Shown in pieces: positions 1,658 to 38,945 of a stretch of DNA of 64,000 nucleotides; within the stretch, counting starts at the first letter, position 1; every line of letters starts with the position of its first letter. The translations under genes were made by a program, and so were the position numbers. This stretch comes from an uncultured Lachnospiraceae bacterium (GTDB lineage: Bacteria > Bacillota > Clostridia > Lachnospirales > Lachnospiraceae). The DNA lies in assembly GCA_946407725.1 (NCBI GenBank), contig CAMJPM010000004.1, forward strand, positions 6,488 to 70,487, given 5' to 3'. The notes under the pieces were generated by a model. The model had not been told where the DNA came from and ran no database searches. It saw only the letters and a list, made by a program, of their open reading frames with translations.

Positions 1658-1658
1658 T

Positions 1659-15897: not shown

Positions 15898-15908
15898 AGG
15901 TACAGGCT

Positions 15909-19820: not shown

Positions 19821-19919
19821 CGGTAAGGTACAAAGTTTGAAAGTAATACTTTCAAACTTTCATCGGTGCCGTGCAGACACGTCACCGATGGGCACACTTG
19901 CCTGCGGCAAGGTACAAAA
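19821..19919. repeat. 84-bp spaced direct repeat CGG(T/C)AAGGTACAAA flanking two strong hairpins (insertion-like element)
   Basis: 19821-19834 and 19905-19918 match at 13 of 14 nt. Hairpins lie at 19832-19860 (13-bp stem) and 19861-19890 (CATCGGTG/CACCGATG). Confidence 0.6.
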
Positions 19920-19920
19920 T

Positions 19921-20859
19921 ATGGGAATCAAAGATACACTTCGAAATATCCTTCCGCCTGAAATAAATGAAGAGTGGGAGTTTTTAAGGGGAGCCTGGTA
20001 TGAGAGGCTCGCCTGTAAAAAAGGACTGCCGGAAGCCCTGAAGCAATGGTACAGGAGCCGTAAGGGCAGGGAACTGAACCTTGAAGACCCGAAAACCTTC
20101 AGCGAAAAGATACAGTGGCTGAAGATCTATGATGTCACACCGGAAAAGACCATGCTCTGCGATAAATTTCTGGTACGGCAGTGGATAAAGGAAAAGGTGG
20201 GGGAGGAATACCTGGTTCCGCTCCTTAAGGTATGGGACAGGGCAGAGGACATAGATTTTGATTCTCTGCCGGATTCCTTTGTATTAAAGACAAATCACAG
20301 CTCCGGATGGAATATCGTGGTGCCGGATAAGCATAAGCTCAATGAAAAAAAGGCCAGAAATAAGCTTAAGCGCTGGATGAATACCGACTTCGCCTGCTTT
20401 ATGGGCTACGAGATGCAATACCGGGATGTGAAACGAAAGATCATCGCGGAGGAGTACATTGGGGACGGGGTACATGAGCTCGATGACTATAAGGTCATGT
20501 GCTTTCACGGGAAGCCCCATGTGATCTGGATAGACAGGGGAAGACACACAGACCACAGGAGAAATCTCTATGACAGGGACTGGAATAAGCTTCCGGTCAC
20601 GATGCTGGTACCGAACTTTGACACAGACCCTCCCGCTCCTGTCAATTTAAGGAAGATGTGGGAAATATCGGAAGTGCTGTCCCAGGGGTTTATCTGTGCC
20701 CGGATAGATTTTTTTGAAGTAAATGGAAAGCTGTATTTTGGTGAGATCACCTTCACCTCCGGCAGTGGGCTTTCGGATTTTGATCCCCCGGAAACCAACA
20801 GGGAATGGGGGGATCTTATGAAACTGCACGAAAAAGCGGAGTGCTACAGGATGATATGA
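19921..20859 (+). CDS. TupA-like ATP-grasp amidoligase (teichuronopeptide-type)
   Basis: EKIQWLKIYD, VLKTNHSSGWNIVV, DYKVMCFHGKP and GEITFTSGSG. ATG 19921 with AAGG RBS. The ORF-track start at 19837 lies inside the hairpin element. Confidence 0.75.
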   Translation: MGIKDTLRNILPPEINEEWEFLRGAWYERLACKKGLPEALKQWYRSRKGRELNLEDPKTFSEKIQWLKIYDVTPEKTMLCDKFLVRQWIKEKVGEEYLVPLLKVWDRAEDIDFDSLPDSFVLKTNHSSGWNIVVPDKHKLNEKKARNKLKRWMNTDFACFMGYEMQYRDVKRKIIAEEYIGDGVHELDDYKVMCFHGKPHVIWIDRGRHTDHRRNLYDRDWNKLPVTMLVPNFDTDPPAPVNLRKMWEISEVLSQGFICARIDFFEVNGKLYFGEITFTSGSGLSDFDPPETNREWGDLMKLHEKAECYRMI

Positions 20860-22235: not shown

Positions 22236-23183
22236 ATGCCTGAGAATAAACCCCTTGTGACATGCGTGATCACAAGCTATAAAAGGAATAAGGAAACGGT
22301 GAGGAGAGCCCTTGACAGTGTGCTCTCCCAGACTTATGCGCCCCTTGAGATCCTCATCATCGATGATAACCGGGGTGAAGGAAGTGAGGTTTATTCAGGG
22401 GCTCTTAGGGAGTTATCGGAGGGCAGGGAGAATGTTACTGTCATAAAGACAGAGAACGGACACGGCGCCCAGAGAGCCAGAAACACCGGCATCGAAAACG
22501 CAAAGGGAAAGTATGTGGCATTTCTCGATGATGATGATGAATGGCTGCCGGAAAAGACAGCAGTCCAGGTAGAGCTTCTGGAAAATAACCCGGAAGCGGG
22601 ACTTAGCTACAGCCGGGGTTATCTTATTGATAATACCTTTGATCCCCCAAGGATCGGGCAGTTTATACGGGGAGAAAACCTGACCTTTGATGAACTGCTC
22701 TTAAGTGACAGAATAGGCACCACCACCCAGGCAGTGATCCCGAAAACGGTTTTTGAAAAGGTGGGGATGTTTGATGAAGCCCTGCCTGCAAGACAGGATT
22801 ACGAGATGTGGCTTCGTATCACAAGGGAGTATAAATCCATATGGAGCCCGCAGCTGCTCTACAGATATTATAAGGAAAAGGGCAAGGAGCAGCTTTCCCA
22901 CAACTGGGAAAAATGTGTTAAAGGTTATGAGATAATATACGATAAGTACAGGGAAGATATAGAAAAAAGCCGGGGAGCCAGGTTTAATTTCGTTTTCCAT
23001 ATCGCCCATCATCTGATGGAGGGGGCAAATGTCACCGGAGACAGGCAGTTAAAGAAAAGGGCTGTGAAAAAATATGCCGAAGCCTTCGTTATCTCTCCTT
23101 ATTTATTCCTTGTACAGGGGAGCTATGTCATAAGAAAGGTACGGAGAAAGATCAAGGCTTTCTTTATCAGAATTAAGAATTAA
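22236..23183 (+). CDS. GT2-family glycosyltransferase
   Basis: VTCVITSYKRNKETVRRALDSVLSQTYAPLEILIIDDN and an LDDDDEW DxD motif. Confidence 0.85.
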   Translation: MPENKPLVTCVITSYKRNKETVRRALDSVLSQTYAPLEILIIDDNRGEGSEVYSGALRELSEGRENVTVIKTENGHGAQRARNTGIENAKGKYVAFLDDDDEWLPEKTAVQVELLENNPEAGLSYSRGYLIDNTFDPPRIGQFIRGENLTFDELLLSDRIGTTTQAVIPKTVFEKVGMFDEALPARQDYEMWLRITREYKSIWSPQLLYRYYKEKGKEQLSHNWEKCVKGYEIIYDKYREDIEKSRGARFNFVFHIAHHLMEGANVTGDRQLKKRAVKKYAEAFVISPYLFLVQGSYVIRKVRRKIKAFFIRIKN

Positions 23184-24669: not shown

Positions 24670-25773
24670 ATGAGGAACGAAAGTAAAAAGGATAAGATAA
24701 AAAGGGAACTGGCTGATTCATATTTTGCTCTTTCCGGAATGAAGGACAGGGCAATGGCATTAAAGGGGATACAGAAGTATCTTAAGGACACTCCTGAATT
24801 GACAGACAGGCAGAAGGAAGAGATAAAATCCTTTTGGAAGGAGCATCTGGGAATAGAGATACCGCTGGATTGGCACAGGCTGTATTACGCCAGGTCAGGT
24901 GTTGAGGATCCGGCCTTTGTTCCCGATACAGTTTTTGAATATGACATAAGGCCTCATTTAAATCATCCGAATTTTTCCATCGTTTACGGTAATAAAGCGT
25001 ATCTGAAGCGCTTTATCCCCAATGCCAGGACAGTCAGATCTGTTTTGATCAATGTAAACGGGCATTATATGAATGAGGATTTTGAGCTTATTGACAGGAA
25101 AACGGCTGGTGATATCCTGAAGGAATACCCTGCTCTTGTGGCAAAACCGGCGCTGTTCACCCATCATGGGGAGGGGGTTTCGCTTATGAAGGCACCCTTT
25201 GACCTTGATGAGATAGAGAAGACATATACACGGAATTACGTAATGCAGATACCCATAGAACAGCACAGAGTACTCTCTTCGTTAAGCCTGACATCCGTAA
25301 ATACCCTGAGGGTAGTCACCGTGCTTCTGGAAGGAAGGGCGCATGTGACCAGTACCTATATCAAGACCGGAGCAGCCGGAGAGTTTGCCAATAATGTGGG
25401 AGATGACCGTTATTTTATCGGTGTGGATGAAAACGGCGTGATCGCTGATTATGCTGCAGACTGTTTCTATAACAAGCATGACAGCATACCCAACAGCGTG
25501 GATTTCAGGGGAATGACCCTGCCGGGATATGATGCCATGTGCAGATGCGCTGAAAAAGCCCATGAGGATATTGCGTTCTTCGGAATGGTGGGGTTTGATA
25601 TGTGTATAGATAAGGATGAACAGCCTGTTGTGGTTGAAGCGAACCTGAAGCAGCCGGGCATTACCCATCAGCTGGCAGCCGGGCCCTATTTCGGGAAATA
25701 TACGGCTGAAGTCCTGGAATACTGTAAGAAAAGAAATATAACAAAGGAAGTGGGCTGGCCACAGATGTGGTGA
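24670..25773 (+). CDS. ATP-grasp protein of the sugar-transfer-associated (ATPgrasp_ST-like) type
   Basis: LVAKPALFTHHGEGVSL, SVNTLRVVTV, ANNVGDD and VGFDMCIDKDEQPVVVEANL follow the ATP-grasp pattern. Confidence 0.6.
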   Translation: MRNESKKDKIKRELADSYFALSGMKDRAMALKGIQKYLKDTPELTDRQKEEIKSFWKEHLGIEIPLDWHRLYYARSGVEDPAFVPDTVFEYDIRPHLNHPNFSIVYGNKAYLKRFIPNARTVRSVLINVNGHYMNEDFELIDRKTAGDILKEYPALVAKPALFTHHGEGVSLMKAPFDLDEIEKTYTRNYVMQIPIEQHRVLSSLSLTSVNTLRVVTVLLEGRAHVTSTYIKTGAAGEFANNVGDDRYFIGVDENGVIADYAADCFYNKHDSIPNSVDFRGMTLPGYDAMCRCAEKAHEDIAFFGMVGFDMCIDKDEQPVVVEANLKQPGITHQLAAGPYFGKYTAEVLEYCKKRNITKEVGWPQMW

Positions 25774-25841
25774 CAGGGAGCATTTACGTGATACAAAAAA
25801 GACTGTGTATAGCAGTGTGAAAGTAAAGAAAGGCAGAATAG

Positions 25842-26645
25842 ATGAAAACCATTAACGTATTATATACGGGAGGCCTGGATTCTTCATATACCATGACTTA
25901 TTTTTCCAGGTTCCCGGTGGAGATACAGCCCTATTACCTAAGGGATCACAGACCCTCGGAGGAATATGAGTTAAGAGCCATAAGATCCATAATCGACGAC
26001 ATCAGGTTAAATCCCGGTACAAAAGCAAATGTGAGGGAGCTTATTACAAAACCCACTTATGCCATTAAACCGGATCCTGTAATACAGAGGGCATACCGCT
26101 ATATGTTTAAGACCCAGGGCTTTGGAAAGCAGTACAGCTTTATTGCCAGGTTTGCAAAACAGGAGCATCTGGACGGATTATTCGTGTCCTTTATTTATAA
26201 TCCAAAAAACAGGCGGAACATGACCTTAAGGGAAAGCGGTGCTGTAATGACCATACAGGATGAGGGTATGGAGTATTATAAACTTGATCCCAAAAAGACC
26301 GAAAAGAATCTATATATCCTTATGGAACATGTGCTGATGCCCCCTTCCTTCATGCATACCAAGGAGCAGGAGATGGAGGAAATGCGGAAGATGGGTTTTT
26401 CGGATTCCGTAAATAAGACCTGGTTCTGCTACTGGCCCGTAAACGGCGAGCCCTGTGGGATCTGTGCCCCCTGCAGGGACTTAATAGAACAGGGGATTAC
26501 ATGGCGGCATACCCCGGAGGGACTGAAGCGCTTTGAAGAGGATAGAAAGGTTCCGGCCTGGAAGCATAAGATAAGGGATCTGAAGCTTACGCTCTCTGAT
26601 AAATGGTATGATTTCAAAATGAGCCGTTTCAGCGGGGAAAAGTAA
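25842..26645 (+). CDS. QueC-like PP-loop ATP pyrophosphatase (adenine nucleotide alpha-hydrolase), paralog 1
   Basis: N-terminal VLYTGGLDSSYT (an SGGxDS variant) and a C-terminal Cys cluster WFCYWPVNGEPCGICAPC, as in QueC. Confidence 0.6.
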   Translation: MKTINVLYTGGLDSSYTMTYFSRFPVEIQPYYLRDHRPSEEYELRAIRSIIDDIRLNPGTKANVRELITKPTYAIKPDPVIQRAYRYMFKTQGFGKQYSFIARFAKQEHLDGLFVSFIYNPKNRRNMTLRESGAVMTIQDEGMEYYKLDPKKTEKNLYILMEHVLMPPSFMHTKEQEMEEMRKMGFSDSVNKTWFCYWPVNGEPCGICAPCRDLIEQGITWRHTPEGLKRFEEDRKVPAWKHKIRDLKLTLSDKWYDFKMSRFSGEK

Positions 26646-26650
26646 AAAGT

Positions 26651-27724
26651 ATGCTTATAAAAAATCCTAAAAAATACATAAGCGGTGCCGGGGTCATCAG
26701 GGAAGCCGGAACCCATATTAAGGAATTTTGTAAAAAGCCTTTGATAATAGGCGGGAAACGCGCCCTTGACGCGGCTCTCGACCCTCTCCTTAAAAGCATG
26801 AAGGAAAACGGGACAGACCCTGTCCGGACAGAGGTTTTTTCCGGATATCCGTCAAAGCGGCAGTTTGAATACTACGAGGGACTTATAAGGGAAAGCATGG
26901 CCGACGGGGTGATAGTCCTCGGAGGGGGAAGGGCTATAGATACGGCTAAGGCTGCAGCTGAGAGAGCCGGCAGAGGAGTCATAGCAATACCCACGGTAGC
27001 CGCAACATGCGCTTCCTGGGCGGCCCTTGTCATAGAATATGATGACAGGGGAGCATATACGGGACGGATAGTGTTAAAGGATTCTCCTCTTCTTGTGATA
27101 GCGGATACGGAAATACTCCTTTCCACACCTGAAAGGTATCTCTTTTCCGGAGTGGTGGATACCTTCGCCAAATACTATGAGACCCGGCATGTATTTCTTA
27201 CCGATCAAAGGGCCATGCATATGGATCTTTCCCTCCATGCATCAGAGATCGCTTTTGACAGACTGGAAGAGAATACCTTCCGTGCCCTATTTGAAGGAAA
27301 GAAGGGGGTTTTCGGACAGGCGGCAAAGGATGTGGTGGATTCCGTAATCTATCTTGCAGGCTTTGCGGGAGCTTTTCAGGAAAAGACAGGAGGCTACTGT
27401 TTTGCCCATCCCTTTTACCATACCTCCACAAGGTATATGGGACAGGACAGAAAGATGCACGGTGAGATAGTATCCTTCGGGATAATGACCCAGCTTTTTC
27501 TGGAGGGAAGGAACCCGGATGAGATAAGGGAAACACTGGAGATATTTAAGAAGTATGATAACGTATTCACGTTAAAAGACTTAGGCCTTGACAGGGATGA
27601 CAGGGATATGCTTTTAGCCCTGTCGGAGGAGATAAAAAGGGAGTTTGACCATGTAAGCTTTGAGGCGGCTTCCATAACAGAAGCAATGCTGGAAGCGGAT
27701 CTTCTGGCAGAGAGTATAAAATAA
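26651..27724 (+). CDS. Glycerol-dehydrogenase-like (group III Fe/Zn alcohol dehydrogenase family) oxidoreductase
   Basis: LGGGRAIDTAKAAA and IPTVAATCASWAALVIEYDDRGAY parallel GldA. Putative metal ligands VVDTFAKYYE, FAHPFYH and HGEIVSFG. Confidence 0.65.
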   Translation: MLIKNPKKYISGAGVIREAGTHIKEFCKKPLIIGGKRALDAALDPLLKSMKENGTDPVRTEVFSGYPSKRQFEYYEGLIRESMADGVIVLGGGRAIDTAKAAAERAGRGVIAIPTVAATCASWAALVIEYDDRGAYTGRIVLKDSPLLVIADTEILLSTPERYLFSGVVDTFAKYYETRHVFLTDQRAMHMDLSLHASEIAFDRLEENTFRALFEGKKGVFGQAAKDVVDSVIYLAGFAGAFQEKTGGYCFAHPFYHTSTRYMGQDRKMHGEIVSFGIMTQLFLEGRNPDEIRETLEIFKKYDNVFTLKDLGLDRDDRDMLLALSEEIKREFDHVSFEAASITEAMLEADLLAESIK

Positions 27725-27775
27725 GCGGGCCTTAAATGGCGTGGCTCTCAGAATAATAGAAAAGAGGATGGGATT

Positions 27776-28762
27776 ATGAAGAAATCATTGAAAACAGGTT
27801 TATGCATTCTGCTTGTATTAATTGCGGTTTTTACCTCTGCGTGTTCAAAGGGTGCGGAAAGCGGAAGCGCCGGTGATGAAGAGATCACTATTAACTATCA
27901 GTCCAGCATAGGTTATGCGCCACTTCTGGTAATGAAGGAAAAGGGTCTTATTGAAAAGGCCTATGGCGGAAACATAAAGGTAAACTGGGTGGAAATGAGC
28001 AACGGAGCTGAGGTTAACGAGGCCATTATCTCGGGAAACCTGGATGTGGGAAGCATGGGAGTTCCGGTGGCCATAACCGGTATCATGGCGGGAAGCCCTT
28101 ACAGGATAGCCTTCGGTCTTGCGGCCCAGCCCTATGCCATACTTTCAAACAAGCCTGAAATAAAGAAGCTCTCAGATATAAAGAGTGACGACCAGATAGC
28201 CATTACGAATATCAACAGCCAGCCCCATATCCTTCTTGCAATGGCGGCGAAGGCAGAGCTGGGGGATGCAAGGGCGCTTGACAACAATCTCACCAAGCTT
28301 GGAAATGCGGACGGTTACGCAGCTATGTTATCCGGTGCGGTTCCCTGTCATATGGTCATCTCTCCCTATAATTTTATGGAGACCACAAATGAGGAGGCGG
28401 ATATACATGAGCTGGAGATAGATCCCAATATCTGGCCTCCGGAGAACACGGCCCTTGTTTCGGTAGTTTCAGAAAGCCTTAAAAATGACAGGCCTAAGGT
28501 GTATGAGGCAATACTCACGGCGTTAAAAGAGGCGGATGATTTTATTAAAACAAACCCCGAAGAGACAGCAAAGATCCTTTCCGAAGGATACGACGCCTCT
28601 GCGGAGGATATTCTGAAATGGATGCAGGATGAAAGGTCATCTTATTCACCGGAGCTTAGGGGAGTAATGAAGATGGCGGACTTTATGGTGGAGGAAGGAT
28701 TCCTGGATAAGGGTCCTATCTCCATAAGCGAGCTTGTATACGATGGTGTAAAGGGCGATTGA
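27776..28762 (+). CDS. ABC-transporter substrate-binding lipoprotein, NMT1/SsuA/TauA-like
   Basis: Signal peptide with a lipobox-like FTSAC. INYQSSIGYAPLLVMKEKGL is typical of NitT/TauT-family binding proteins. Confidence 0.7.
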   Translation: MKKSLKTGLCILLVLIAVFTSACSKGAESGSAGDEEITINYQSSIGYAPLLVMKEKGLIEKAYGGNIKVNWVEMSNGAEVNEAIISGNLDVGSMGVPVAITGIMAGSPYRIAFGLAAQPYAILSNKPEIKKLSDIKSDDQIAITNINSQPHILLAMAAKAELGDARALDNNLTKLGNADGYAAMLSGAVPCHMVISPYNFMETTNEEADIHELEIDPNIWPPENTALVSVVSESLKNDRPKVYEAILTALKEADDFIKTNPEETAKILSEGYDASAEDILKWMQDERSSYSPELRGVMKMADFMVEEGFLDKGPISISELVYDGVKGD

Positions 28763-28763
28763 G

Positions 28764-29531
28764 ATGAATAAAAAGCTGTGCGCACAGATAGCCTTTCTGG
28801 TTTTTATCCTTATTCTGTGGCAGATACTCTACAGTATGCATATATGGCCGGAGCTTTTATTCCCCTCTGTTTCCATGATCGGAGATGCATTTATCAGGGC
28901 GTTTACGGAACGTGAGCTGGGAGTGATGATATTGCATTCCTTAAGGCTTCTGATCGAGGGACTTTTTATCGGGGTGGTCTTTGCTTTTATCCTGTCCAGT
29001 CTTTTTGCGATCAACGAGAACCTTTCCGCCATTTACAACATGCTGGTCTGCATGTTTGACCTGATCCCGGGAATTGCGCTGATACCCGTTGCCATACTCT
29101 GGCTGGGGATAGGAGATGAAGCCATCATCTTCATGGTGGTGCACTCCGTGATCTGGCCCATGTCAAGGAGCATAATAGACGGCTTTAAGGCTGTTCCGAA
29201 GATATATACGGAAGTCGGAAAGAATATGGGGCTGTATGGCGCGAAGCTTATTTTCGGGGTCTATTTACCAGCGTCCTTTGAGCGGCTGTTCTCCGGTATC
29301 AAGGTAGGCTGGGCCCGGGCATGGAGAGGGCTTATCAGTGCCGAAATGGTATTCGGGGGAGGAAGTGCTCTCGGAATCGGTTACTATATTACAGACAGAC
29401 GCACAAATCTGGATATTTCCGGTATTTTTGCCACCATCATAGTGATAATACTTATAGGTATCGTGGTGGAATACGGTATTTTCAGGGTTATTGAGAAGAA
29501 TACGGTGGTCAAATGGGGGATGGTACATTGA
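28764..29531 (+). CDS. ABC-transporter permease (NitT/TauT family)
   Basis: 255 aa with about 6 TM segments and an EAA-like loop (TEVGKNMGLYGAKLIFGVYLPAS). Confidence 0.8.
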   Translation: MNKKLCAQIAFLVFILILWQILYSMHIWPELLFPSVSMIGDAFIRAFTERELGVMILHSLRLLIEGLFIGVVFAFILSSLFAINENLSAIYNMLVCMFDLIPGIALIPVAILWLGIGDEAIIFMVVHSVIWPMSRSIIDGFKAVPKIYTEVGKNMGLYGAKLIFGVYLPASFERLFSGIKVGWARAWRGLISAEMVFGGGSALGIGYYITDRRTNLDISGIFATIIVIILIGIVVEYGIFRVIEKNTVVKWGMVH

Positions 29532-30298
29532 GTACGGAGCCTATTTTACATATAGAAAATCTCCATAAGGAGTACGATAATCCTGTTACCCTGGTGTTAA
29601 ATAATGTGAGCTTTGATCTTTTCAGGGAGGATTTCCTCTGTATCCTCGGACCTTCGGGATGCGGAAAGTCAACACTTATAAGATGTATAGCTGGGTTTGA
29701 AAAATACAGTGGGACCATAGAGGTGGACGGCAAAAGGGTTGAAAGCCCCGGATCGGACAGGACCATGGTATTTCAGGATTTTAACCAGCTTTTTCCCTGG
29801 ATCACGGTCATCAATAACATAGCCTATCCTCTTAAGATAAACGGAATGAAGGATAAAGCCGAACGCCTCAAAAAGGCGGAAACATACCTTAACAAGGTGG
29901 GACTTTCGGAGTACAGGGATTACTATCCACACCAGCTTTCCGGGGGCATGAAGCAGAGGGTGGCCATAGCGAGAGCCATGGCGCTGGGATCCAGGATCAT
30001 CCTTATGGACGAACCCTTTGCCGCACTGGATGCCATGAGCCGTAACCAGATGCAGGACGAGCTTTTGCGCATAAAAGAAGGCGAGGGAATGACGGTGCTT
30101 TTCATTACCCATAACATCCAGGAAGCTATCACACTGGGGAACCGTATCATGGTGATGGGAAATTCAGGCAACATAATCGAACATATGGAAAATCCCATAG
30201 AGAAACCGGTGACTCCGGCTTCTCCGGGATATAGTGAGCTATGGAAGCATTTAAACCGGCTTTTACGAAATGAATGTCAGCTGGAGAAAGGCCAATGA
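29513..30298 (+). CDS. ABC-transporter ATP-binding protein (NitT/TauT family)
   Basis: Walker A GPSGCGKST, signature LSGGMKQRVAIARA, Walker B ILMDEPFAALD. Confidence 0.9.
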   Translation: MGDGTLSTEPILHIENLHKEYDNPVTLVLNNVSFDLFREDFLCILGPSGCGKSTLIRCIAGFEKYSGTIEVDGKRVESPGSDRTMVFQDFNQLFPWITVINNIAYPLKINGMKDKAERLKKAETYLNKVGLSEYRDYYPHQLSGGMKQRVAIARAMALGSRIILMDEPFAALDAMSRNQMQDELLRIKEGEGMTVLFITHNIQEAITLGNRIMVMGNSGNIIEHMENPIEKPVTPASPGYSELWKHLNRLLRNECQLEKGQ

Positions 30299-30299
30299 A

Positions 30300-31613
30300 A
30301 TGAGTGTTTACGAAGATATTGTCAATAAGAGATCAAAACTTGCCCTTGTGGGTCTGGGATATGTGGGAATGCCCATAGCGGTGGCTTTTTCCTCCCATGT
30401 TGACACCATAGGCTTTGATATCAATGAAGAAAAGATACGTAAATACAGGGATGGCTTTGACCCCACCAATGAAGTGGGAAGCGAGGTCATTAAAAAATGT
30501 ACCGTAGATTTTACTTCCGATGAGAAAAAGCTGAAGGAAGCATCCTTTATCATAGTAGCGGTGCCCACCCCGGTCAATCACGATCATACACCGGATCTTT
30601 CACCTGTGGAGGGGGCGAGCCATGTGGTGGGGAGGAACCTTCAGAAGGGCAGCATAGTGGTCTATGAATCCACAGTCTATCCTGGTGTTACCGAGGATAT
30701 CTGCGTTCCCATACTGGAAGAGGAGTCGGGTTTAAAGTGCGGTGTTGATTTTAAAATCGGTTATTCACCGGAGAGGATAAACCCCGGCGACAAGGTGCAC
30801 AGACTGGAGACCATAACAAAGATCGTATCCGGAATGGATGAGGAGTGCTTAAACGATATAGCGGCCATGTACAGTCTGGTGGTAAAAGCCGGCGTTTACA
30901 GGGCTGAGAGCATAAAGGTTGCTGAGGCTGCGAAGGTTATAGAAAACAGCCAGAGGGATATCAATATCGCCTTTATGAACGAGCTCTCCATGATATTTAA
31001 TAAAATGGGCATAGATACCCTTTCCGTATTAAAGGCCGCGGGAACAAAATGGAATTTCTTAAGCTTCAGGCCCGGTCTGGTGGGGGGCCACTGTATAGGC
31101 ATAGATCCCTATTATCTTACATACAAAGCTGAAGAGCTGGGCTACCATAGCCGGATAATCCTGTCCGGCCGCCGTATCAACGATGATATGGGTAAGTACG
31201 TGGCGGAGTGTCTGGTTAAAAATCTTATAAAAGCAGATAAGCCGGTGAAGGGCGCAAAGGTGGCTATACTTGGGTTCACCTTTAAGGAGAACTGTCCGGA
31301 CACCAGAAATACAAAGGTCATAGATATAGTGAACGAACTCCGGGAATACGGCATAGAGCCCCTGATAAGCGATCCGGAGGCGGACAGTGCGGAGGCAAAG
31401 GCGCTCTACGGCATTGATTTCACATCCTTGCCGGAGATAAAGGACTGTGACGCCGTTATACTTGCGGTTTGCCACAGCGCCTTTGAAAAACTTAAAGAAA
31501 AGGATTACCGCAGACTCTTCAAAAAAGAGGGTTCTATGGTTCTTTCCGATGTAAAGGGCATGTTGGACAGGAAAGAATTCGAGGAAAAAGGATATATTTA
31601 CTGGAGACTGTAA
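30300..31613 (+). CDS. UDP-N-acetylhexosamine 6-dehydrogenase (TviB/WbpO/Cap5O-like nucleotide-sugar dehydrogenase)
   Basis: LALVGLGYVGMPIAVAF, catalytic GGHCIGIDPYYL, and C-terminal FKENCPDTRN. ATG 30300 lies just after the ABC ATPase stop. Confidence 0.85.
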   Translation: MSVYEDIVNKRSKLALVGLGYVGMPIAVAFSSHVDTIGFDINEEKIRKYRDGFDPTNEVGSEVIKKCTVDFTSDEKKLKEASFIIVAVPTPVNHDHTPDLSPVEGASHVVGRNLQKGSIVVYESTVYPGVTEDICVPILEEESGLKCGVDFKIGYSPERINPGDKVHRLETITKIVSGMDEECLNDIAAMYSLVVKAGVYRAESIKVAEAAKVIENSQRDINIAFMNELSMIFNKMGIDTLSVLKAAGTKWNFLSFRPGLVGGHCIGIDPYYLTYKAEELGYHSRIILSGRRINDDMGKYVAECLVKNLIKADKPVKGAKVAILGFTFKENCPDTRNTKVIDIVNELREYGIEPLISDPEADSAEAKALYGIDFTSLPEIKDCDAVILAVCHSAFEKLKEKDYRRLFKKEGSMVLSDVKGMLDRKEFEEKGYIYWRL

Positions 31614-31614
31614 A

Positions 31615-32391
31615 ATGGACAAATATAATATCATGTGGACCGGAGGACTGGATTCCACATATACCATGGTTGTTTATTCAAGACATGAGGCATTGCTGCA
31701 GCCTTATTATTTCATAAACGGGAGAAAGTCAGAAAAGTATGAGCTCTCTGCCATGAAGGAGATCACGGAGCTTTTAAAGGCTGATCCTAAGACAAGGGCA
31801 GAGATACTGCCGCTCATTCTTATTGAATCCGGAGACGTCCCCGATGACCCTGAGGTTAAAGAGGCATACAGGGAGCTTAAGAAAAAGTCGGGGATCGGAA
31901 GCCAGTATGACTGGATAGCGAGATATGCAAGGGGTAAGGGGTTAAAAGGACTTATTTATTCCCCTGCCAGAGCCCTGTCTGATTCTACTAAGTTCAGAAC
32001 CTGTGTGGAGTCAAATGGCAGAGCGATAAAGCAGGTGAATGGCATCGGACGTACATTCTATACCATAGATATGGAAAACAGTTCTGAGGCGCTGAAGCTG
32101 ATATTCGGAGACTTTATCATCTCAGAAACCTATGATCTTACGAAGGTTGATGAGGAAAGGAACTTAAGGGATATGGGCTGTACCGCAATTCTGGAAAAGA
32201 CCTGGTTCTGCCACACTCCCGTGCTTGGGCGTCCCTGCGGCTACTGTCATCCCTGCGAGCAAACCGTTGAATCGGGACAGACATGGCGCTTTACAGCAGC
32301 CCAGCTTAAGCGCTATGAGCAGCATAAGGCCGGGGTTTCACCGCTCAGGATCCGTATAGGAAGTTATATGGATGCGCTGCTTGGAAAATGA
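31615..32391 (+). CDS. QueC-like PP-loop ATP pyrophosphatase, paralog 2
   Basis: IMWTGGLDSTYT and WFCHTPVLGRPCGYCHPC, the same architecture as 25842-26645. Starts 2 nt after the dehydrogenase stop. Confidence 0.6.
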   Translation: MDKYNIMWTGGLDSTYTMVVYSRHEALLQPYYFINGRKSEKYELSAMKEITELLKADPKTRAEILPLILIESGDVPDDPEVKEAYRELKKKSGIGSQYDWIARYARGKGLKGLIYSPARALSDSTKFRTCVESNGRAIKQVNGIGRTFYTIDMENSSEALKLIFGDFIISETYDLTKVDEERNLRDMGCTAILEKTWFCHTPVLGRPCGYCHPCEQTVESGQTWRFTAAQLKRYEQHKAGVSPLRIRIGSYMDALLGK

Positions 32392-32399
32392 CATACGGT

Positions 32400-33359
32400 T
32401 CAGAGCCGGATCATTTTTCCCAGCATTTCGTCGGTACCCTCCGGGATCCAGGTACACTGTCCGCTGGAGGGAGTGAAGGTCATTTCACCGAATTTAATAT
32501 CACCGTTGTCCAGATGGTAGAGATCCACCCTTACATAGGGGAAACCCTTACAAAGTATTTCAGCCAGTTCCTTAAGCTTATCATAGTTTAGGGGCTTTTC
32601 CGGCAGAGTCTCGCAGAGCGGATAGGCATTGGTCCTGTATGGAAGGAGCTTCCAATCCATATCGAAGAACGCCAGTCTTGCGCTGCCTGAACGCCCTCCT
32701 ATGTATTCACAGCAGACAGGAACTCCGTTAAAACAGTGAAATTTATAATCTATCAGATCTTTTCCGTTATTTATAAGGAATTCCTCGGCGATTATCCTCC
32801 GCCGGATCCCATGATACTGCATCTGAAAACCGAATCTGTATGAAAAGTCATAGGCCATCCAGCGGCGGAAAGCCTCCCCGGCCTTTTTTTTATTGAGAGA
32901 TGCCTTGTCTGTCACAATGAGGTTTGTCCTGCAGGCGTGGTTTGTCTTTAACACAAAGCTGTCGGGAAGAGCGTCAAAATCTATATCATTGAAGCTGTCC
33001 CAGACCCCTAAAAGGGGGATAAGGTATTCTTCTCCGATCTTTTCCTTTATCCAGTCCCGTACCAGATATTTATCGGAGAGACGGGTCATTTCATCAGTTA
33101 CACCGTAGAGCTTTATCCAGTTTATCTTGTCGCACCAGGTCCGGGGAGGGGAAAGATTGAGTTTTCTCCCGTTGCAGACCCGGAACCACCGTTTCAGCGC
33201 CAGAGGGCGAAGAGGCTTCGGAGTGAGCTTTTCCCCGTAATAGGACAAAAATGTTTTCAGTTTTCTCACAGTGCTTTTCCCGGGCATTTTTATACCTGCC
33301 TTAAACTGTTTTGCCGGAGAACACCGGTCCGCTACATTATAGTATGATTTACGTTTCAA
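32400..33359 (-). CDS. TupA-like ATP-grasp amidoligase, paralog 2 (the only well-supported minus-strand gene in the window)
   Basis: DKINWIKLYG, LIPLLGVWDSFNDIDFDALPDSFVLKTNHACRTNLIV, DYKFHCFNG and GEMTFTPSSG align with 19921-20859. The start could instead be the internal ATG at 33287. Confidence 0.75.
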   Translation of the reverse strand: MKRKSYYNVADRCSPAKQFKAGIKMPGKSTVRKLKTFLSYYGEKLTPKPLRPLALKRWFRVCNGRKLNLSPPRTWCDKINWIKLYGVTDEMTRLSDKYLVRDWIKEKIGEEYLIPLLGVWDSFNDIDFDALPDSFVLKTNHACRTNLIVTDKASLNKKKAGEAFRRWMAYDFSYRFGFQMQYHGIRRRIIAEEFLINNGKDLIDYKFHCFNGVPVCCEYIGGRSGSARLAFFDMDWKLLPYRTNAYPLCETLPEKPLNYDKLKELAEILCKGFPYVRVDLYHLDNGDIKFGEMTFTPSSGQCTWIPEGTDEMLGKMIRL

Positions 33360-33410
33360 AACAATCCTGAAGGAGTTTGGATCGGGTTTCTGTATATTTA
33401 TTCCGGGATA

Positions 33411-33419
33411 TGTTATAAT
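33411..33419 (+). promoter_or_regulatory. Extended -10 box TGTTATAAT in the divergent intergenic region
   Basis: TGnTATAAT 45 nt upstream of ATG 33464. Confidence 0.35.
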
Positions 33420-33463
33420 ACATTAACCTGTTAATGAAAAGTTACCGAAAGGAGCCGTGTCTG

Positions 33464-34336
33464 ATGGCATCATATTTCAAGAGAGTTTTTAAGCCCAGTA
33501 TCAGGGAGTATCTGTATGTGATACCGGGAAAAAAGTCTTTTTTCGGCTGTTTAAGACTGTTGTGGGGACTTGTAAAACCCTATGGGGTAACGTACCCTGA
33601 TGTGGTGGTGGTGCTCACCACACATTGTTCGCTTAAATGCGCAAAATGCAACAACCTGATGCCCTGCTATAAGGAGCCTTATCATATTCCGGCTGCGGAA
33701 GTGCTGCGTGATATTGATATCCTTCTGTCCCATACCGATAATTGCATTAAACTGGAGCTTCTGGGAGGAGAGCCCTTTGTCTATCCGGAGATAAATGAAG
33801 TTATTGACGGAGTAAAGAAATATAAGAATGTGATGTGTGTGGCTTTTACCACAAACGCTACAGTGATCCCCTCTGATGAGACCCTGAAAAAGATTGCCTC
33901 CCTCAAAAACAAAAAGGTCGTAATAAGCGATTACGGCGTAAAGACCCAGAAGGTGGAGGAATTCATGAAAACCTGCAGGAAATACGGCATTCCCTGCGCC
34001 CGCTCAGTTTCAAAATACTGGGCAGATCCGGGAGGAACGGAGTGCAGGAATAAATCGAAGGAGCAGCTTTCCATAGAGTATAATAAATGCTACAGCGCCA
34101 GATATTGCAGGACTATGCTGAACGGAAAGGTGTACGCCTGCGCAAGGTCTGCATCCCTTACCGATCTCGGGCTTATGGACGGCAGCCATGACAGCTTTGA
34201 TGTAAGAAAAAAGAGAAGTGACAGGGAGTTCAGAAAAGGCTTCCGGAAATTCCTGACACTTGATTATGCGGATGCATGTAATTACTGTGATCATTATCTT
34301 GCAAAGCATATTCCCGCGGGAGAACAGCTTCCATGA
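33464..34336 (+). CDS. Radical SAM protein with a Cys-rich C-terminal region
   Basis: CSLKCAKC (CX3CX2C), GGEPFVYPE, and further Cys motifs CYSARYC, YACARS and CNYCDH. AAGGAG lies 9 nt before ATG 33464; the ORF-track start is 33434. Confidence 0.7.
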   Translation: MASYFKRVFKPSIREYLYVIPGKKSFFGCLRLLWGLVKPYGVTYPDVVVVLTTHCSLKCAKCNNLMPCYKEPYHIPAAEVLRDIDILLSHTDNCIKLELLGGEPFVYPEINEVIDGVKKYKNVMCVAFTTNATVIPSDETLKKIASLKNKKVVISDYGVKTQKVEEFMKTCRKYGIPCARSVSKYWADPGGTECRNKSKEQLSIEYNKCYSARYCRTMLNGKVYACARSASLTDLGLMDGSHDSFDVRKKRSDREFRKGFRKFLTLDYADACNYCDHYLAKHIPAGEQLP

Positions 34337-35856
34337 CTGACAGGGTCAGAAAATATATAACAGAAAAACAGTGGGTTATTTATGCCACTCTGGCGGCATT
34401 TCAGCTCATGTTCATGTTCTGGCAGTGCGGAAAACAGTCCATGTGGTTAGATGAGATGTCATTTCTCGGAACCATTACAAAGGACAAATCGGTATCGGAT
34501 ATCCTGAATCAGTATCTCATGAAGGATATTACAAATCTTCCGTTATTTCCACTTATGGCAGCCCTGTGGTACCGGATACTTCCGGCAAATGACAGACTGA
34601 TGCTTCTTCTGCCGGAGCTTCTTACCGCCCTTTCCCTTGTGGTAACGGCCATGCTTGCGGAGAGCTCCTTTGGTAAAAAAGAGGGGATCATATCAGCCAT
34701 CCTCATGCTTATTTCGCTCCGGGCAGTGTTAAACTGCGGTTTCGAATTGAGGTCTTATGCCTGCATGCTCTTTTTCAGCTCCCTGATGCTGCTCTTTTAT
34801 TATCGCAGGGGCACCGAAAGGAATGAGGGTTCCGGAGAAAACCGGAAAAATGAGATCCTGTTTTTCATGTCCATGCTTCTTCTCCTTTTCACCCATTATT
34901 CGGGAACTATCCTCACAGGCATTCTGGGATTTTTTGATCTTATTAAGGTGATAAAGGGAAAACATGGGGTCAAAAGGCTTTTTCCTTATTTTTTATCCGT
35001 ATTTCTTTTTTTACCATGGTTTATTCTCATGCTGATAAAGAGGGAAAAGAGCATAACATCCTTCTGGAAAAGCCCCCCTGCCATTCCGGATATAGCACGG
35101 ACATACAAATACCTGCTGTCAGGTAACGAAGCGGTTTTTATAGTATACCTGCTGACTGCGATCCTTACTGTATGTATCCTGATAAGGTGCGTCTTATTTA
35201 AGAGAGAGGCAGAAAGACGGGATATCATCTCTTTTGAAATGCTTCTTTCAGCTTTCCTGATGATAGGGGCTGTATTTGTCTACAGTGCGGTCATCAATCC
35301 GGGGGGAGGCTTTTTTGTGAAGAGATATTTTATAGTGCTTCTTCCGGAGGTAATAGCTGTATCCTCTTACGGGATGGTGAGGACAGGAGACTTTTTCACA
35401 TCGGTAAAAACCCCTGAGGAGAAAAACCTGTTCTTTGCCGTAGCAGCTTTGTTTATCCTTATCTATTTCGGCTTTATCAATCTCTCCGAGATCCGGGAAA
35501 CCTCCGGAACGAGCTGGGAAACCTTCAGGGAAGCGGCCTCTTATGTGAGAGAACAGGGGATACTGGAGGATGAAGGAAATGCGGCTCTCGTGTGCTCCGT
35601 AAATGAAAGGGCCACCGCAGGATTTGCGGAATATTATGTAAGGCATGGGGGAAAATATAAAGAGATCCCCGCTATCAGTCTCCAGGGAAATGATCCGGTG
35701 ACGGAGATGAAAAAATATGACAGGCTTTATCTTGTTTATGTTCACAGGGATCTTAGTGATCTGGATCCCCTTATCACGGAGACCCTGGAAAAGGAATACC
35801 GCCTTAAGGAGGAAAACGAGCCGGTAAGAGCAGCTGTATATGAAAGAAAAAAGTAA
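34333..35856 (+). CDS. Polytopic GT-C-like membrane glycosyltransferase (GT39/ArnT/PMT_2-like)
   Basis: About 11 TM segments, first-loop acidic motif MWLDEMSF, and a C-terminal soluble domain. ATGA overlap with the radical SAM gene. Confidence 0.55.
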   Translation: MTDRVRKYITEKQWVIYATLAAFQLMFMFWQCGKQSMWLDEMSFLGTITKDKSVSDILNQYLMKDITNLPLFPLMAALWYRILPANDRLMLLLPELLTALSLVVTAMLAESSFGKKEGIISAILMLISLRAVLNCGFELRSYACMLFFSSLMLLFYYRRGTERNEGSGENRKNEILFFMSMLLLLFTHYSGTILTGILGFFDLIKVIKGKHGVKRLFPYFLSVFLFLPWFILMLIKREKSITSFWKSPPAIPDIARTYKYLLSGNEAVFIVYLLTAILTVCILIRCVLFKREAERRDIISFEMLLSAFLMIGAVFVYSAVINPGGGFFVKRYFIVLLPEVIAVSSYGMVRTGDFFTSVKTPEEKNLFFAVAALFILIYFGFINLSEIRETSGTSWETFREAASYVREQGILEDEGNAALVCSVNERATAGFAEYYVRHGGKYKEIPAISLQGNDPVTEMKKYDRLYLVYVHRDLSDLDPLITETLEKEYRLKEENEPVRAAVYERKK

Positions 35857-37114: not shown

Positions 37115-37115
37115 A

Positions 37116-38945
37116 ATGAAGAAAATAAAGGATTTTCAGGACTTATTGCATAATAAACATATAGACCGGATATTATTTCTTGTTTTTCCGGTGCTTATTT
37201 TCTATTTTACACAGACAGCCATAGGAAGTGAGGGCATAAAGGATATAGAACCACAGCTTCTTTTACTTAATATACTGATCTTTGAAGCCTTCGCTTTTTT
37301 CTTCCTTGGTTTGACTGCCAGAATGAAGGCCGCCATAATTGCCGAAGAGATTATTTTCGGGGTCTTTGCGGTGGCAAACAGCTATGTGCGTATGTTCCGG
37401 GGAAGCTATATAATGCCCTGGGATTTTGTGGCCCTCCGGACCGCCGTGAATGTGGCCGGAAATTACGATTATGCCATGGATATAAATGCCAGGAACGCTC
37501 TTATAGGGCTTGTTGCGGTATTTATCGCAGCAGTGCTTCTTTTTACCGATGAAAAGCCGGAGCTTAAGCTCCCAAAACGTCTCGCATGTGTTTTACTTTC
37601 CGCAGTGTTTATCCTTGCCCTTGGAGCAGTGGTGTCAAATGAGGATACGGCAGAAGAACTCCGTCTCCATGACAGCAGGTTTTCTGTTACAAAAGCCTAT
37701 ACCAGTAACGGTATGATGCTGGGATTTATCTACAAATTGCAGAAGATATTTGTGGAAAAACCCGAGGGCTATTCAAAGGAAAAGGAGATGCTGATACTGG
37801 ATGACATTAATGTGGCGGAGGAACCGGATACGGAGGAACTGCCGGATATCATAGTCGTAATGAATGAAGCCTTTTCCGATCTGAAGGTTGACTGTGATTT
37901 TAACACGAATAAAGACTATATGCCCTTTGTACATTCCCTCAAAGGAGCGGAGAATACCATAACGGGATACGCCCATGTGTCGGTTCTGGGAGGACAGACC
38001 CCAAACAGCGAATTTGAGCTTTTGACGGGTAATACCATGGCGTTTTTGCCGGAAAACAGCATTCCCTTCCAGACCTTTGTGCGTAAGAGGATGGATGCCA
38101 TTCCCTGGCATCTGCAGGACTTCGGATATTTTAATCTGGCAATGCACCCCTATCACTCCAGCGGCTGGGACCGCACCATTGCCTGGCCTCTTCTCGGGTT
38201 CCAGGAATGCAGGTTCTTAACGGATTTTAACAAATACGATCCGGAGCTTAAAAAGGTAAGGAATTATATTTCTGATGAAGCCATGTATGACGTTCTTCTT
38301 GATAAGATGTCAAAAAGGGATGATCCGGAGCAGCCCATATTTGCTTTCAATGTGACAATGCAAAATCACTCTGGATACGGAAAAGACTATGATAACCTTC
38401 CTCATGAGATAAGCGTTGAAGGAGCGGAGAGCGCTGCCGGGGAAAATTCCGGCTCCCTTATAAATTACCTTAATCTTATTTATGAAAGCGACAAGGCCTT
38501 TGAAAAGCTTATTACCCGTCTTAAGGATGCGGATAGACCCACCATAGTGCTTTTTTACGGAGACCACCAGCCGGATCCCGAGGATGCGGAACCCATTTTT
38601 TCCATGAACGGAATTGACGTAAATAATCTTCCCCCCGAGTATGTGGTTAAGGATCATATGGTTCCTTTTGTGATCTGGGCGAATTATGACATTAAGGATG
38701 AAAGTAATGTGGATATCTCCCTTAATTATCTGGGAAACCGTCTGTTAAAGGAAGCGGGGATACCTCTTACCAGATACAGGACATACATAGAGACGTTCTC
38801 AGAGGAATATCCGGTGATATCATCCATTGGGGGAAAGCGTAAGGACGGCTCGGTGATAGGACTGAAGGAGCTCCGGGAAGAATTAAACGCTCTTTCTTCC
38901 ATGCAGTATTATGAGATGTTTGAGGATACGGATAATTATGAGTAA
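37116..38945 (+). CDS. LtaS-like sulfatase-domain transferase (5 TM + extracellular alkaline-phosphatase-fold domain), paralog 1
   Basis: PDIIVVMNEAFSD, GGQTPNSEFELLTG (candidate Thr nucleophile), FNVTMQNHSGY, FYGDHQP and VPFVIWANYDI. Confidence 0.8.
   Translation: MKKIKDFQDLLHNKHIDRILFLVFPVLIFYFTQTAIGSEGIKDIEPQLLLLNILIFEAFAFFFLGLTARMKAAIIAEEIIFGVFAVANSYVRMFRGSYIMPWDFVALRTAVNVAGNYDYAMDINARNALIGLVAVFIAAVLLFTDEKPELKLPKRLACVLLSAVFILALGAVVSNEDTAEELRLHDSRFSVTKAYTSNGMMLGFIYKLQKIFVEKPEGYSKEKEMLILDDINVAEEPDTEELPDIIVVMNEAFSDLKVDCDFNTNKDYMPFVHSLKGAENTITGYAHVSVLGGQTPNSEFELLTGNTMAFLPENSIPFQTFVRKRMDAIPWHLQDFGYFNLAMHPYHSSGWDRTIAWPLLGFQECRFLTDFNKYDPELKKVRNYISDEAMYDVLLDKMSKRDDPEQPIFAFNVTMQNHSGYGKDYDNLPHEISVEGAESAAGENSGSLINYLNLIYESDKAFEKLITRLKDADRPTIVLFYGDHQPDPEDAEPIFSMNGIDVNNLPPEYVVKDHMVPFVIWANYDIKDESNVDISLNYLGNRLLKEAGIPLTRYRTYIETFSEEYPVISSIGGKRKDGSVIGLKELREELNALSSMQYYEMFEDTDNYE

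Follow-up and report, generated by a model that had tools for sequence, protein, structure and literature searches.

Why would a bacterium gather three ATP-grasp ligases, two PP-loop enzymes, a radical S-adenosylmethionine (SAM) protein and an ATP-binding cassette (ABC) importer around a sugar 6-dehydrogenase? Such a block lies in a 64,000-nucleotide (nt) stretch of contig CAMJPM010000004.1 from an uncultured Lachnospiraceae bacterium, which we call the window. Gene coordinates are positions in this stretch, L-numbers denote comparison loci, and PP1 and PP2 are PP-loop proteins 1 and 2. Window proteins were scored against Pfam, using its gathering scores, and against NCBIfam, using the cutoffs of its models. 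An earlier note, made from the DNA sequence alone, had proposed that the block decorates a hexosaminuronic acid with several amides or amidines; the thirteen genes that it described were all found where it had placed them and in the families it had named. We consider it slightly better than an even bet that the block forms the core for tailoring in a large Wzx-dependent locus, where a hexosaminuronic acid of a cell-envelope glycopolymer is amidated and the PP-loop enzymes act as accessory carbonyl-adenylating amidases.

Where would the uronic acid come from? The dehydrogenase gene (30270..31613, plus strand) encodes three UDPG_MGDP_dh domains. Its best NCBIfam model by far is TviB (NF011729; 1e-142, 475.6 bits), under the equivalog cutoff of 592, and it passes the NDP-sugar dehydrogenase subfamily cutoff (390 versus 190 bits), so the TviB/WbpO-like assignment made initially holds. 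By these matches the enzyme is classed with the N-acetylhexosamine (HexNAc) type, TviB/WbpO, within which the models do not fix its precise sugar substrate. The strong homology predicts that it would convert UDP-HexNAc to a UDP-N-acetylhexosaminuronic acid (UDP-HexNAcA).

What would be done with its carboxylate? TupA-like ligase 1 (19837..20859, plus strand; 1.2e-54, full-length domain) and TupA-like ligase 2 (32400..33359, minus strand; 9e-48) match the ATPgrasp_TupA family (PF14305, cutoff 25 bits) with scores of 185.9 and 163.3, over model positions 1-241 and 2-240 of 241, and are 47% identical to each other. In Campylobacter jejuni, the C-terminal domain of Cj1438 (Cj1438C) catalyzes ATP-dependent amide formation at the C6 carboxylate of glucuronate; the acceptor is glucuronate within the growing capsule chain rather than UDP-glucuronic acid (UDP-GlcA), and the amines are serinol phosphate and ethanolamine phosphate (PMC11800397). 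With the expressed sequence from the supplement of that paper as the query, Cj1438C itself matched PF14305 at 1.3e-37 and was 33% identical to TupA-like 2 (E = 4e-30) and 26% identical to TupA-like 1 (E = 2e-29). As homologs of Cj1438C, the TupA-like proteins are predicted uronate:amine amide ligases. They would first turn the C6 carboxylate of the uronic acid into an acyl phosphate and then couple an amine to form the amide, probably after the sugar has been transferred onto the growing lipid-linked chain. A check sample of 80 metagenome loci anchored on the TupA domain contained 46 loci spanning at least 10 kb, and a UDP-sugar dehydrogenase lies within 8 kb in 16 of these (35%).

A sugar 6-dehydrogenase combined with a TupA-like ligase is thus an already described pathway type. 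The earlier note had known of no described pathway with the whole combination; for this half of it that was wrong, given the serinol/ethanolamine glucuronamide pathway of C. jejuni HS:2 (PMC11800397). Like that pathway, which comprises the dehydrogenase Cj1441, the Cj1438 C-terminal ligase and Cj1435-1437 for amine supply, the window has a UDP-sugar 6-dehydrogenase and an ATPgrasp_TupA ligase. The window dehydrogenase, however, is of the HexNAc (TviB) type rather than the UDP-glucose type, and the ligases stand alone instead of being fused to a family 2 glycosyltransferase (GT2). The window lacks the serinol- or ethanolamine-phosphate supply genes and a Cj1435-like phosphatase, and it adds a second TupA paralog, a further ATP-grasp protein, two PP-loop proteins and a radical SAM enzyme.

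That further ATP-grasp protein (24670..25773, plus strand) belongs to the ATPgrasp_ST or "sugar-transfer associated" family (PF14397; 1.9e-27, 96.6 bits where the gathering score is 31.4, over positions 10-266 of the 278-position model). We know of no characterized member of this family; at the family level, the protein may perform a third ligation of the same chemical type. Searches of the Protein Data Bank (PDB) with the single sequences of PP2, TupA-like 2 and the ATPgrasp_ST protein returned nothing useful. PF14305 takes its name from TupA of Bacillus halodurans, which is linked to teichuronopeptide, a wall polymer of uronic acid plus peptide; the reaction of TupA is not known to have been defined biochemically. 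In contrast to the teichuronopeptide case, the window has no genes for poly-γ-glutamate synthesis, and a search of the window for PGA_cap and DltA found neither.

What, then, are the two PP-loop proteins? PP1 (25842..26645, plus strand) and PP2 (31615..32391, plus strand) are 35% identical, and both carry an N-terminal TGGLDS PP-loop and a Cx8CxxCxxC motif near the C-terminus. Whereas the ATPgrasp_ST, ATPgrasp_TupA, Radical_SAM and UDPG_MGDP_dh assignments anticipated for the block were all obtained, that of QueC was partial. PP1 scored 21.2 bits (2.3e-4), under the gathering score of 22, over model positions 155-200 only, and PP2 scored 23.9 bits (3.3e-5) with a match confined to the C-terminal ~45 model positions; NCBIfam yielded nothing for either protein beyond a weak C-terminal QueC match. 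An alignment of 33 sequences shows that T9, G11, D13, S14, P30/Y32, S39/E43, G95/Q97/Y98 and K177 are invariant in the family, as are C199, C208, C211 and C214 (spacing 9, 3, 3). The AlphaFold model of PP2 has a predicted local distance difference test (pLDDT) score of 94.5, and its best PDB folds are Cap9, QueC (3bl5, 2pg3), YcfA and QatC, with template-modeling (TM) scores of 0.44-0.64. A profile of the family matches QueC at E = 4e-5, aligning the PP-loop (SGGQDS), the lysine and the zinc motif.

A 2026 survey of the QueC family defines both the zinc motif, C(x)8CxxCxxC, and a catalytic signature consisting of YxQxHxxE, VPxRN and YPDC, and describes no polysaccharide-linked cluster (PMC13329287). 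The catalytic signature is not recognizable in the PP-loop family, the central region of which does not align; for its first element only Y, S and E have counterparts (QPYY..R.S...E). For this reason the family, which shares the adenylating scaffold, should not be filed as QueC. Of the original description as QueC-like, the PP-loop, the invariant lysine, the Cx8CxxCxxC motif and the fold stand, and a full-length QueC match does not. As in QueC, Cap9 and QatC, carbonyl adenylation followed by nitrogen attack is to be expected. Unlike QueC and its relatives, to which it is 13-16% identical, the family has ~40 extra residues and no recognizable substrate motifs, and its genes lie in polysaccharide loci with ATP-grasps, in the absence of queD, queE or folE or a defense-system context.

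The family is large. A word-indexed search gave 58 relatives, while an exhaustive profile search of 1.84 billion proteins gave 2195 clusters (50% identity) at E <= 1e-3, 779 of them at E <= 1e-30, and when one genome per species was scanned, 467 stretches in 185,579 genomes carried the family. Hosts include Firmicutes, Bacteroidota, Proteobacteria, Actinobacteria, Spirochaetes, Planctomycetes and others. The gene also occurs in tandem, with three copies in L016 from a Mariniphaga metagenome-assembled genome (MAG) (6942-11909) and four in L043 (6094-9278), and no ATP-grasp gene was detected near either array. In the protein P0273, two PP-loop domains are joined head to tail.

With which enzymes do the PP-loop proteins work? 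The PP-loop loci inspected with called genes are all polysaccharide loci. L047, a Staphylococcaceae locus considered as a possible cap1-like taurine locus, has the PP-loop gene at the very beginning of its contig, and those neighbors that can be seen are unrelated. Among 258 proteins encoded one or two genes away from a PP-loop gene (~70 loci), ATP-grasps form the commonest class, with 11 ATPgrasp_TupA and at least 5 ATPgrasp_ST proteins, while Wzx (8), family 1 glycosyltransferases (7) and UDP-sugar dehydrogenases (7) are each fewer than the ATP-grasps together; these tallies show no single dominant partner family besides the ATP-grasps. ATPgrasp_ST genes stand directly beside PP-loop genes in L022, L033, L038, L074 and L085. 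A context survey with family hidden Markov models covered 81 non-redundant PP-loop loci, 45 of which have full-length genes and do not belong to the closely related Lachnospiraceae. Within 10 kb of the PP-loop gene, a TupA or ST ATP-grasp is encoded in 34 of the 81 and in 19 of the 45 distant full-length loci (42%), eight of the latter within 200 bp. By comparison, a UDP-sugar dehydrogenase lies within 10 kb in four of the 45 (9%), so the tie between PP-loop enzymes and the sugar 6-dehydrogenase, on which the earlier note had built, is not a general one.

There is also a gene fusion. In one lineage a single open reading frame (ORF) of 534 amino acids (aa), at 4533-6137 in L095, joins a PP-loop domain (residues 5-233) to a full TupA domain (292-530; 1.5e-79), and two independent sequences, 85% identical to each other, show this arrangement. 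The association is asymmetric, since a PP-loop gene is absent from all 46 TupA-anchored metagenome loci that span 10 kb or more. Given the ATP-grasp neighborhood, the fusion and this asymmetry, the PP-loop protein looks like an optional or accessory step attached to ATP-grasp ligation and not like a parallel activator of the uronate.

Could the PP-loop enzymes instead convert UDP-HexNAcA, or HexNAcA in the polymer, to a primary uronamide resembling GalNAcAN, independently of ATP-grasps that act on other residues? PP2 begins 1 nt past the dehydrogenase gene in the window (a gap first given as 2 nt), PP1 orthologs adjoin the dehydrogenase in the relatives L001 (Lachnospiraceae AD3010), L002, L008, L010 and L017, and trios of TupA, dehydrogenase and PP-loop genes, or similar ones, occur in L024, L048 and L062. 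The first half-reaction of QueC, moreover, turns a carboxylate and NH3 into an amide (PMC13329287). We nevertheless regard an independent uronamide as unlikely: among the distant loci the dehydrogenase is found in four and an ATP-grasp in 19 of the 45, and the paralog adjacent to the dehydrogenase is not the same across genomes. Because it differs, adjacency cannot assign separate roles to PP1 and PP2.

A different proposal, that the PP-loop proteins are N-acetyl-sugar amidotransferases like WbpG and PseA, adenylating an acetamido carbonyl and adding ammonia to turn it into an acetamidino group on a HexNAc uronic acid or on the nonulosonic acid of the downstream NeuB/NeuC genes, seems to us quite improbable. 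WbpG-type enzymes fall within the wider PF06508 family (PMC13329287), and an amide oxygen is activated in the second half-reaction of QueC. The dehydrogenase is absent locally from most PP-loop loci, whereas N-acetyl sugars are universal, and the window, L001, L002 and L093 all encode NeuB, NeuC and a CMP-transferase. NeuB, however, is found in none of the 45 distant full-length loci, and the coupling and fusion with TupA-type carboxylate ligases would be left unexplained. In size, too, the proteins (~255 aa) are far from WbpG (300-400 aa), and NCBIfam, as noted, gave them a weak C-terminal QueC match alone.

PP-loop enzymes that act on the cell envelope are familiar: WbpS (GalNAcAN), LtsA/AsnB1 (amidation of meso-diaminopimelate) and WbpG/PseA convert a carboxylate to an amide or an acetamido group to an amidine. 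These asparagine-synthetase-type and WbpG/PseA enzymes are larger and have or recruit a glutaminase, whereas the proteins described here are QueC-shaped and predicted to bind zinc, and no glutaminase domain or gene accompanies the family. Since there is no glutaminase partner, free ammonia would be the likely nitrogen source, as for QueC. Fold and context together suggest that PP1 and PP2 would activate a carbonyl oxygen by adenylation and then exchange it for nitrogen. If they are accessory to ATP-grasp ligation, the likeliest target would be the leftover carboxylate of an amino acid installed by the ATP-grasp enzyme, or the carboxylate of the amine donor before ligation. We would rank the ATP-grasp product or donor first, the uronate (giving a primary uronamide) second and the N-acetyl group third.

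What does the radical SAM protein add? The likely start of its gene is at 33464, within an ORF listed from 33434 (33464..34336, plus strand; Radical_SAM 6.9e-8), giving 290 aa; all orthologs, which are 44-84% identical, are likewise ~290 aa long. C55, C59 and C62 (CX3CX2C) and G101-G102-E103 (GGE) are invariant in 35 sequences, and so are C209, C226, C272 and C275, which form a C-terminal four-cysteine auxiliary [4Fe-4S] domain without a full SPASM. The AlphaFold model (pLDDT 94.2) gives SpeY (7wzv/7wzx) as the best Foldseek match, with E = 1e-14, a TM score of 0.72 and a root-mean-square deviation of 2.7 Å over 263 columns; SuiB, MoaA and BtrN follow with E values of 4e-7 or weaker (BtrN 5e-6). 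A phmmer comparison with 7wzv gives 2.8e-10. An identification of 7wzv as BlsE was rejected: BlsE, a radical enzyme whose substrate is a glucuronic acid nucleoside, is 7vob, which ranks 32nd among the folds, and 7wzv is SpeY. SpeY, of spectinomycin biosynthesis, is a twitch radical SAM dehydrogenase with HygY and BtrN among its relatives. Like SpeY, the window protein has CX3CX2C and a four-cysteine auxiliary cluster domain, and a secondary alcohol of a sugar is its expected substrate; it differs in its location, a cell-wall glycan locus rather than an aminoglycoside cluster, and is ~20% identical to SpeY.

Distant relatives of ~440 aa bear the C-terminal PF08484 and PF22674 domains of NDP-hexose C-methyltransferases, a fusion that points to nucleotide-sugar substrates. 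We regard the protein as probably a SpeY-like twitch sugar dehydrogenase or epimerase, judging from the modeled fold, and its original inclusion in a carboxylate- or amide-ligase theme was not borne out. It would abstract hydrogen from a carbon that bears a secondary alcohol, in the uronic acid residue or in its nucleotide precursor, leading to oxidation or epimerization. Its orthologs adjoin PP2 in five relatives, where PP2 orthologs (60-65% identical) precede them (L001, L002, L008, L010, L013), and adjoin ATPgrasp_ST in L086 (Lachnospiraceae C1.1). In L094 the ortholog is divergent from a TupA-like gene, and in L093 it lies beside PGA_cap and a UDP-sugar dehydrogenase. L086 also encodes FkbH-like, glyoxalase-like and carrier proteins beside MBOAT genes (3924-6414, 1025-3888), which suggests that the polymer is esterified with a glyceryl- or lactyl-type unit in a process that needs the carrier protein.

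A PP-loop protein next to a radical SAM protein also brings to mind QueC and QueE, and the pair could be imagined as making 7-deazapurines, or the PP-loop protein as a sulfur transferase, with no relation to glycans. The nearest folds of PP2, its adjacency to the radical SAM gene in the five relatives and a weak QueE match (1e-4) would fit. Against this, Q and H of YxQxHxxE, together with VPxRN and YPDC, cannot be aligned, with matches at the PP-loop and the C-terminus only; the cysteine spacing is that of the QueC zinc site and not a three-cysteine Fe-S pattern; SpeY matches at 1e-14 while QueE is outside the top 50 folds; and the inspected PP-loop loci are polysaccharide loci. No queD or folE is present among the annotated window genes at 7618-56496 (seven outer ORFs were unscanned) or in the related loci examined, and no linkage to queD, queE or folE was found among the annotated window genes, the listed genes of related loci or the immediate neighbors in 78 genome loci. 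The deazapurine reading was rejected on the missing motifs, the lack of queD and folE among annotated genes and the SpeY-like fold; we give either nucleobase or sulfur-transfer chemistry almost no credence.

Is the importer a dedicated part of the block, as first described? Between PP1 and the dehydrogenase lie plus-strand genes for a GldA-like iron-type polyol dehydrogenase (26651..27724; Pfam Fe-ADH 8e-23) and, by Pfam, an SsuA/NMT1-type binding lipoprotein (27776-28762), an ABC permease (28764-29531) and an ATPase (29513-30298). The GldA-like protein misses both NCBIfam glycerol dehydrogenase cutoffs (212 versus 336 bits for the subfamily, 148 versus 700 for the equivalog), and in the PDB it matches 1jpu (1.4e-38). 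With its relatives from the rumen (45-63% identity) it makes up a distinct subfamily, whose genes invariably adjoin those of an NMT1/SsuA-type ABC importer. The best model for the binding protein is SsuA_fam (103.6 bits, missing the cutoff of 163.5) and its best PDB match is SsuA (2x26, 3.7e-7). In another polysaccharide locus, L087, six genes are contiguous: those of a thiamine pyrophosphate (TPP) enzyme (44% identical to its window counterpart), the GldA-like protein (57%), the binding protein (67%), the permease (72%), the ATPase (76%) and a GT2 (55%). The window splits such a cassette by ~8 kb, with GT8, TupA-like 1, GT2a, GT2b, Wzx, the ATPgrasp_ST protein and PP1 in between.

The acetolactate-synthase-like TPP enzyme of the window (15909-17717, plus strand; Pfam) and the GT2 with a C-terminal membrane region that follows (17790-18812, plus strand; Pfam) therefore probably form one module with the GldA-like protein and the importer, as the homology to L087 suggests. 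The GldA-like protein and importer are a cassette separable from the amide-ligase theme, contiguous in L087 with the TPP enzyme and the GT2, and the first description needs changing on this point. Acetolactate synthases are the top NCBIfam matches of the window TPP enzyme, as of its L087 ortholog. The possibility of Xsc (sulfoacetaldehyde acetyltransferase), which would make the module generate sulfite, was rejected for the L087 ortholog, which scores 214 bits against a cutoff of 620 on that model and 363 bits with acetolactate synthase. The GldA-like dehydrogenase and the SsuA-type importer would together import and oxidize a small hydroxy compound used by the locus.

Related cassettes occur outside glycan loci. 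In L088-L092 (Butyrivibrio, Treponema and other rumen contigs) a HisC-like aminotransferase accompanies a GldA-like protein and an NMT1/SsuA-type importer, often with a GNAT, beside genes of Cys/Met metabolism, nitrogenase-like Oxidored_nitro genes or an Ldh_2 protein, which is closest to L-sulfolactate dehydrogenase, below cutoff. These cassettes may serve salvage of organosulfur compounds or amino alcohols. Their binding proteins show no BLAST similarity to that of the window.

Could the amine donor itself be imported? L001 (6630-10777) and L002 (6603-10783) encode a different SsuA-type importer, with a binding protein 22% identical to that of the window, followed by a racemase gene that overlaps the start of PP2, and partial matches to the permease and ATPase suggest that L010 and L013 have this type of importer too. 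The two racemases, with 198 and 199 bits, narrowly pass the cutoff of 190 for CuyB, a cysteate racemase characterized in PMC11193023; the generic aspartate racemase model scores equally. This is a hint that in L001 and L002 the amine donor is an amino sulfonate, such as cysteate, brought in by the importer. The type 1 capsule of Staphylococcus aureus, with taurine amide-linked to N-acetylgalactosaminuronic acid (PMC12043029), is a chemical precedent, likened by chemistry alone, for what an SsuA-type importer might supply to a Gram-positive HexNAcA polymer. As a long shot, the ~255-residue PP-loop/zinc proteins could be a new class of glycan amide or amidine synthetases that acts downstream of TupA or ST ligases and, with the radical SAM enzyme and the importer, yields a wall polymer of HexNAcA amidated with an imported sulfonate. 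If true, a sulfonated wall polymer would be made from scavenged gut sulfonates, cysteate- or taurine-like.

How well does an amidated hexosaminuronic acid with PP-loop enzymes as accessory amidases hold up as a whole? Several observations weigh against it. Within 10 kb of the PP-loop gene, 58% of loci have no ATP-grasp, so the family can work without one nearby, and characterized enzymes of the QueC clade all act on purines or deazapurines (PMC13329287). The paralog that abuts the dehydrogenase is PP2 in the window and a PP1 ortholog in L001, L002 and L010. Amine-donor genes were not found: the searched window has no Cj1437/HisC-like aminotransferase, CuyB-like racemase or Cj1435-like phosphatase. 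CuyB is assigned by a narrow margin, and SsuA with a score under its cutoff. Finally, because the 8 kb that can be seen downstream of the L087 cassette contain neither ATP-grasp nor PP-loop genes, the GldA-like protein and importer may serve a different decoration.

Is the clustering itself meaningful? Window proteins are 60-85% identical to those of Lachnospiraceae AD3010, MA2020, C1.1 and rumen MAGs, which puts the source organism with the Lachnospiraceae of the rumen. A set of 10-11 genes, comprising the dehydrogenase, PP1, PP2, TupA-like 2, the radical SAM enzyme, GT2a, GT2b, Wzx, a 507-aa membrane protein, a 495-aa protein and an SsuA-type importer, recurs, in an order that has been rearranged, in no fewer than five further genomes or MAGs of Lachnospiraceae. 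Orthologs of the two GT2s and Wzx accompany the PP-loop and radical SAM set in L001, L002, L008, L010, L013 and L017, the same six loci that hold orthologs of the 495-aa protein (546-705 bits). Because a rare PP-loop family has two paralogs 5 kb apart and the gene set recurs, the clustering of the block is not due to chance.

It might still be argued that the five ATP-using enzymes serve several polymers (a teichoic-acid-like polymer, a heteropolysaccharide and a nonulosonic acid glycan) and that shuffling of cassettes has brought them together. Gene order is heavily rearranged among relatives, the GldA-like/importer cassette moves separately, and L093 has the radical SAM gene without a PP-loop or ATP-grasp gene. 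The window itself holds three LtaS-like, two GDPD and two YfhO paralogs, a duplicated NeuC gene and a transposase-like gene. We find such a mosaic unlikely to account for the block, for the 10-11 gene set stays together despite the rearrangement, intergenic gaps are very short or overlapping at 21156-43270, and a PP-loop–TupA fusion exists. Plus-strand genes in that interval are tightly packed, with gaps of -95 to +74 nt, and TupA-like 2 is the only gene on the minus strand.

What surrounds the block? GT2a (21156-22202), GT2b (22236-23183) and the Wzx-type flippase (23185-24612), all on the plus strand and assigned by Pfam, precede it. Directly after the radical SAM gene comes a seven-transmembrane protein with weak GT-C/PMT_2 similarity (34333..35856, plus strand; PMT_2 0.0039, seven hydrophobic segments), orthologs of which hold the same place in L001, L010, L012 and L013. 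Beyond the block, up to 43270, this protein is joined by a GDPD, an LtaS-like protein, the soluble 495-aa protein (38911..40398, plus strand), which has no Pfam or NCBIfam match, and a second YfhO. On the other side, 13084-19818 encodes YfhO, the TPP enzyme and GT2 and GT8 glycosyltransferases, and past 43270 lie nonulosonic acid genes and more LtaS and GDPD copies. With GT2s, Wzx, a GT-C-like protein, LtaS/GDPD/YfhO genes and nonulosonic acid genes flanking it, the block does belong to glycan biosynthesis, as was initially read, and the window is part of one very large envelope-glycan (cell-surface polymer) region. From this context, export and polymerization would fall to Wzx, the GT-C-like membrane protein and the 495-aa protein.

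Other parts of the region have their own features. At 7618-13068 is a nucleotide-sugar branch of a nucleotidyltransferase, a 4,6-dehydratase-like short-chain dehydrogenase/reductase (SDR), a DegT-type aminotransferase/dehydrase, an HMGL-like aldolase and a HAD phosphatase, which together with the TPP enzyme resembles the branched-chain deoxysugar pathways of the yersiniose/YerE type. The YfhO–TPP–GT2–GT8 backbone is found again in L093. Two NeuC-like UDP-GlcNAc 2-epimerase genes (47530-48684, 55342-56496) encode proteins with 92% identity, indicating a recent duplication within the nonulosonic acid region, and a PD-(D/E)XK transposase-like gene (46127-47206) lies just upstream. The three LtaS-like sulfatase-domain proteins are mutually 43-44% identical, the two GDPD proteins are 56% identical, and the two YfhO proteins have strongly diverged (25%); the copies of these families are located at 35840-38945, 49398-53969, 13084-15897 and 40304-43270. 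The region probably makes several teichoic-acid-like polymers or decorations. Directly upstream of the glycan region a GGDEF-EAL protein (5776-7527) offers a possible link between cyclic di-GMP and envelope polysaccharide production. Judged by their N-termini alone, the seven edge ORFs (115-5840 and 56493-62287) appear to include a D-Ala-D-Ala-ligase-type ATP-grasp-like protein (4629-5840), an SDR epimerase-like protein (56493-57470) and two large membrane or secreted proteins (57503-62287). An Rfam scan found no RNA elements in the window.

What does this locus mean for envelope biology? Uronic acids substituted through amide bonds, with amino acids, serinol, taurine or as primary amides, are common in bacterial surface glycans, and the substituents shape charge, antigenicity and phage recognition. 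To our knowledge, the enzymes that install them are mostly unassigned outside C. jejuni. With its dehydrogenase and TupA-like ligases, the core adds one more case to the known C. jejuni-type system. What is new is a QueC-fold family as partner and the fusion of that family to TupA, along with a SpeY-like radical SAM enzyme in a wall-glycan locus and an embedded SsuA-type importer; for none of these did we find a description in the searchable literature. The QueC-fold PP-loop proteins thus become candidates for a second enzyme family for amide decoration, spread over many phyla, and a SpeY-like radical SAM enzyme is placed in primary cell-wall glycan synthesis. The embedded importer suggests that rumen Firmicutes may import a small molecule specifically for the decoration of their envelope.

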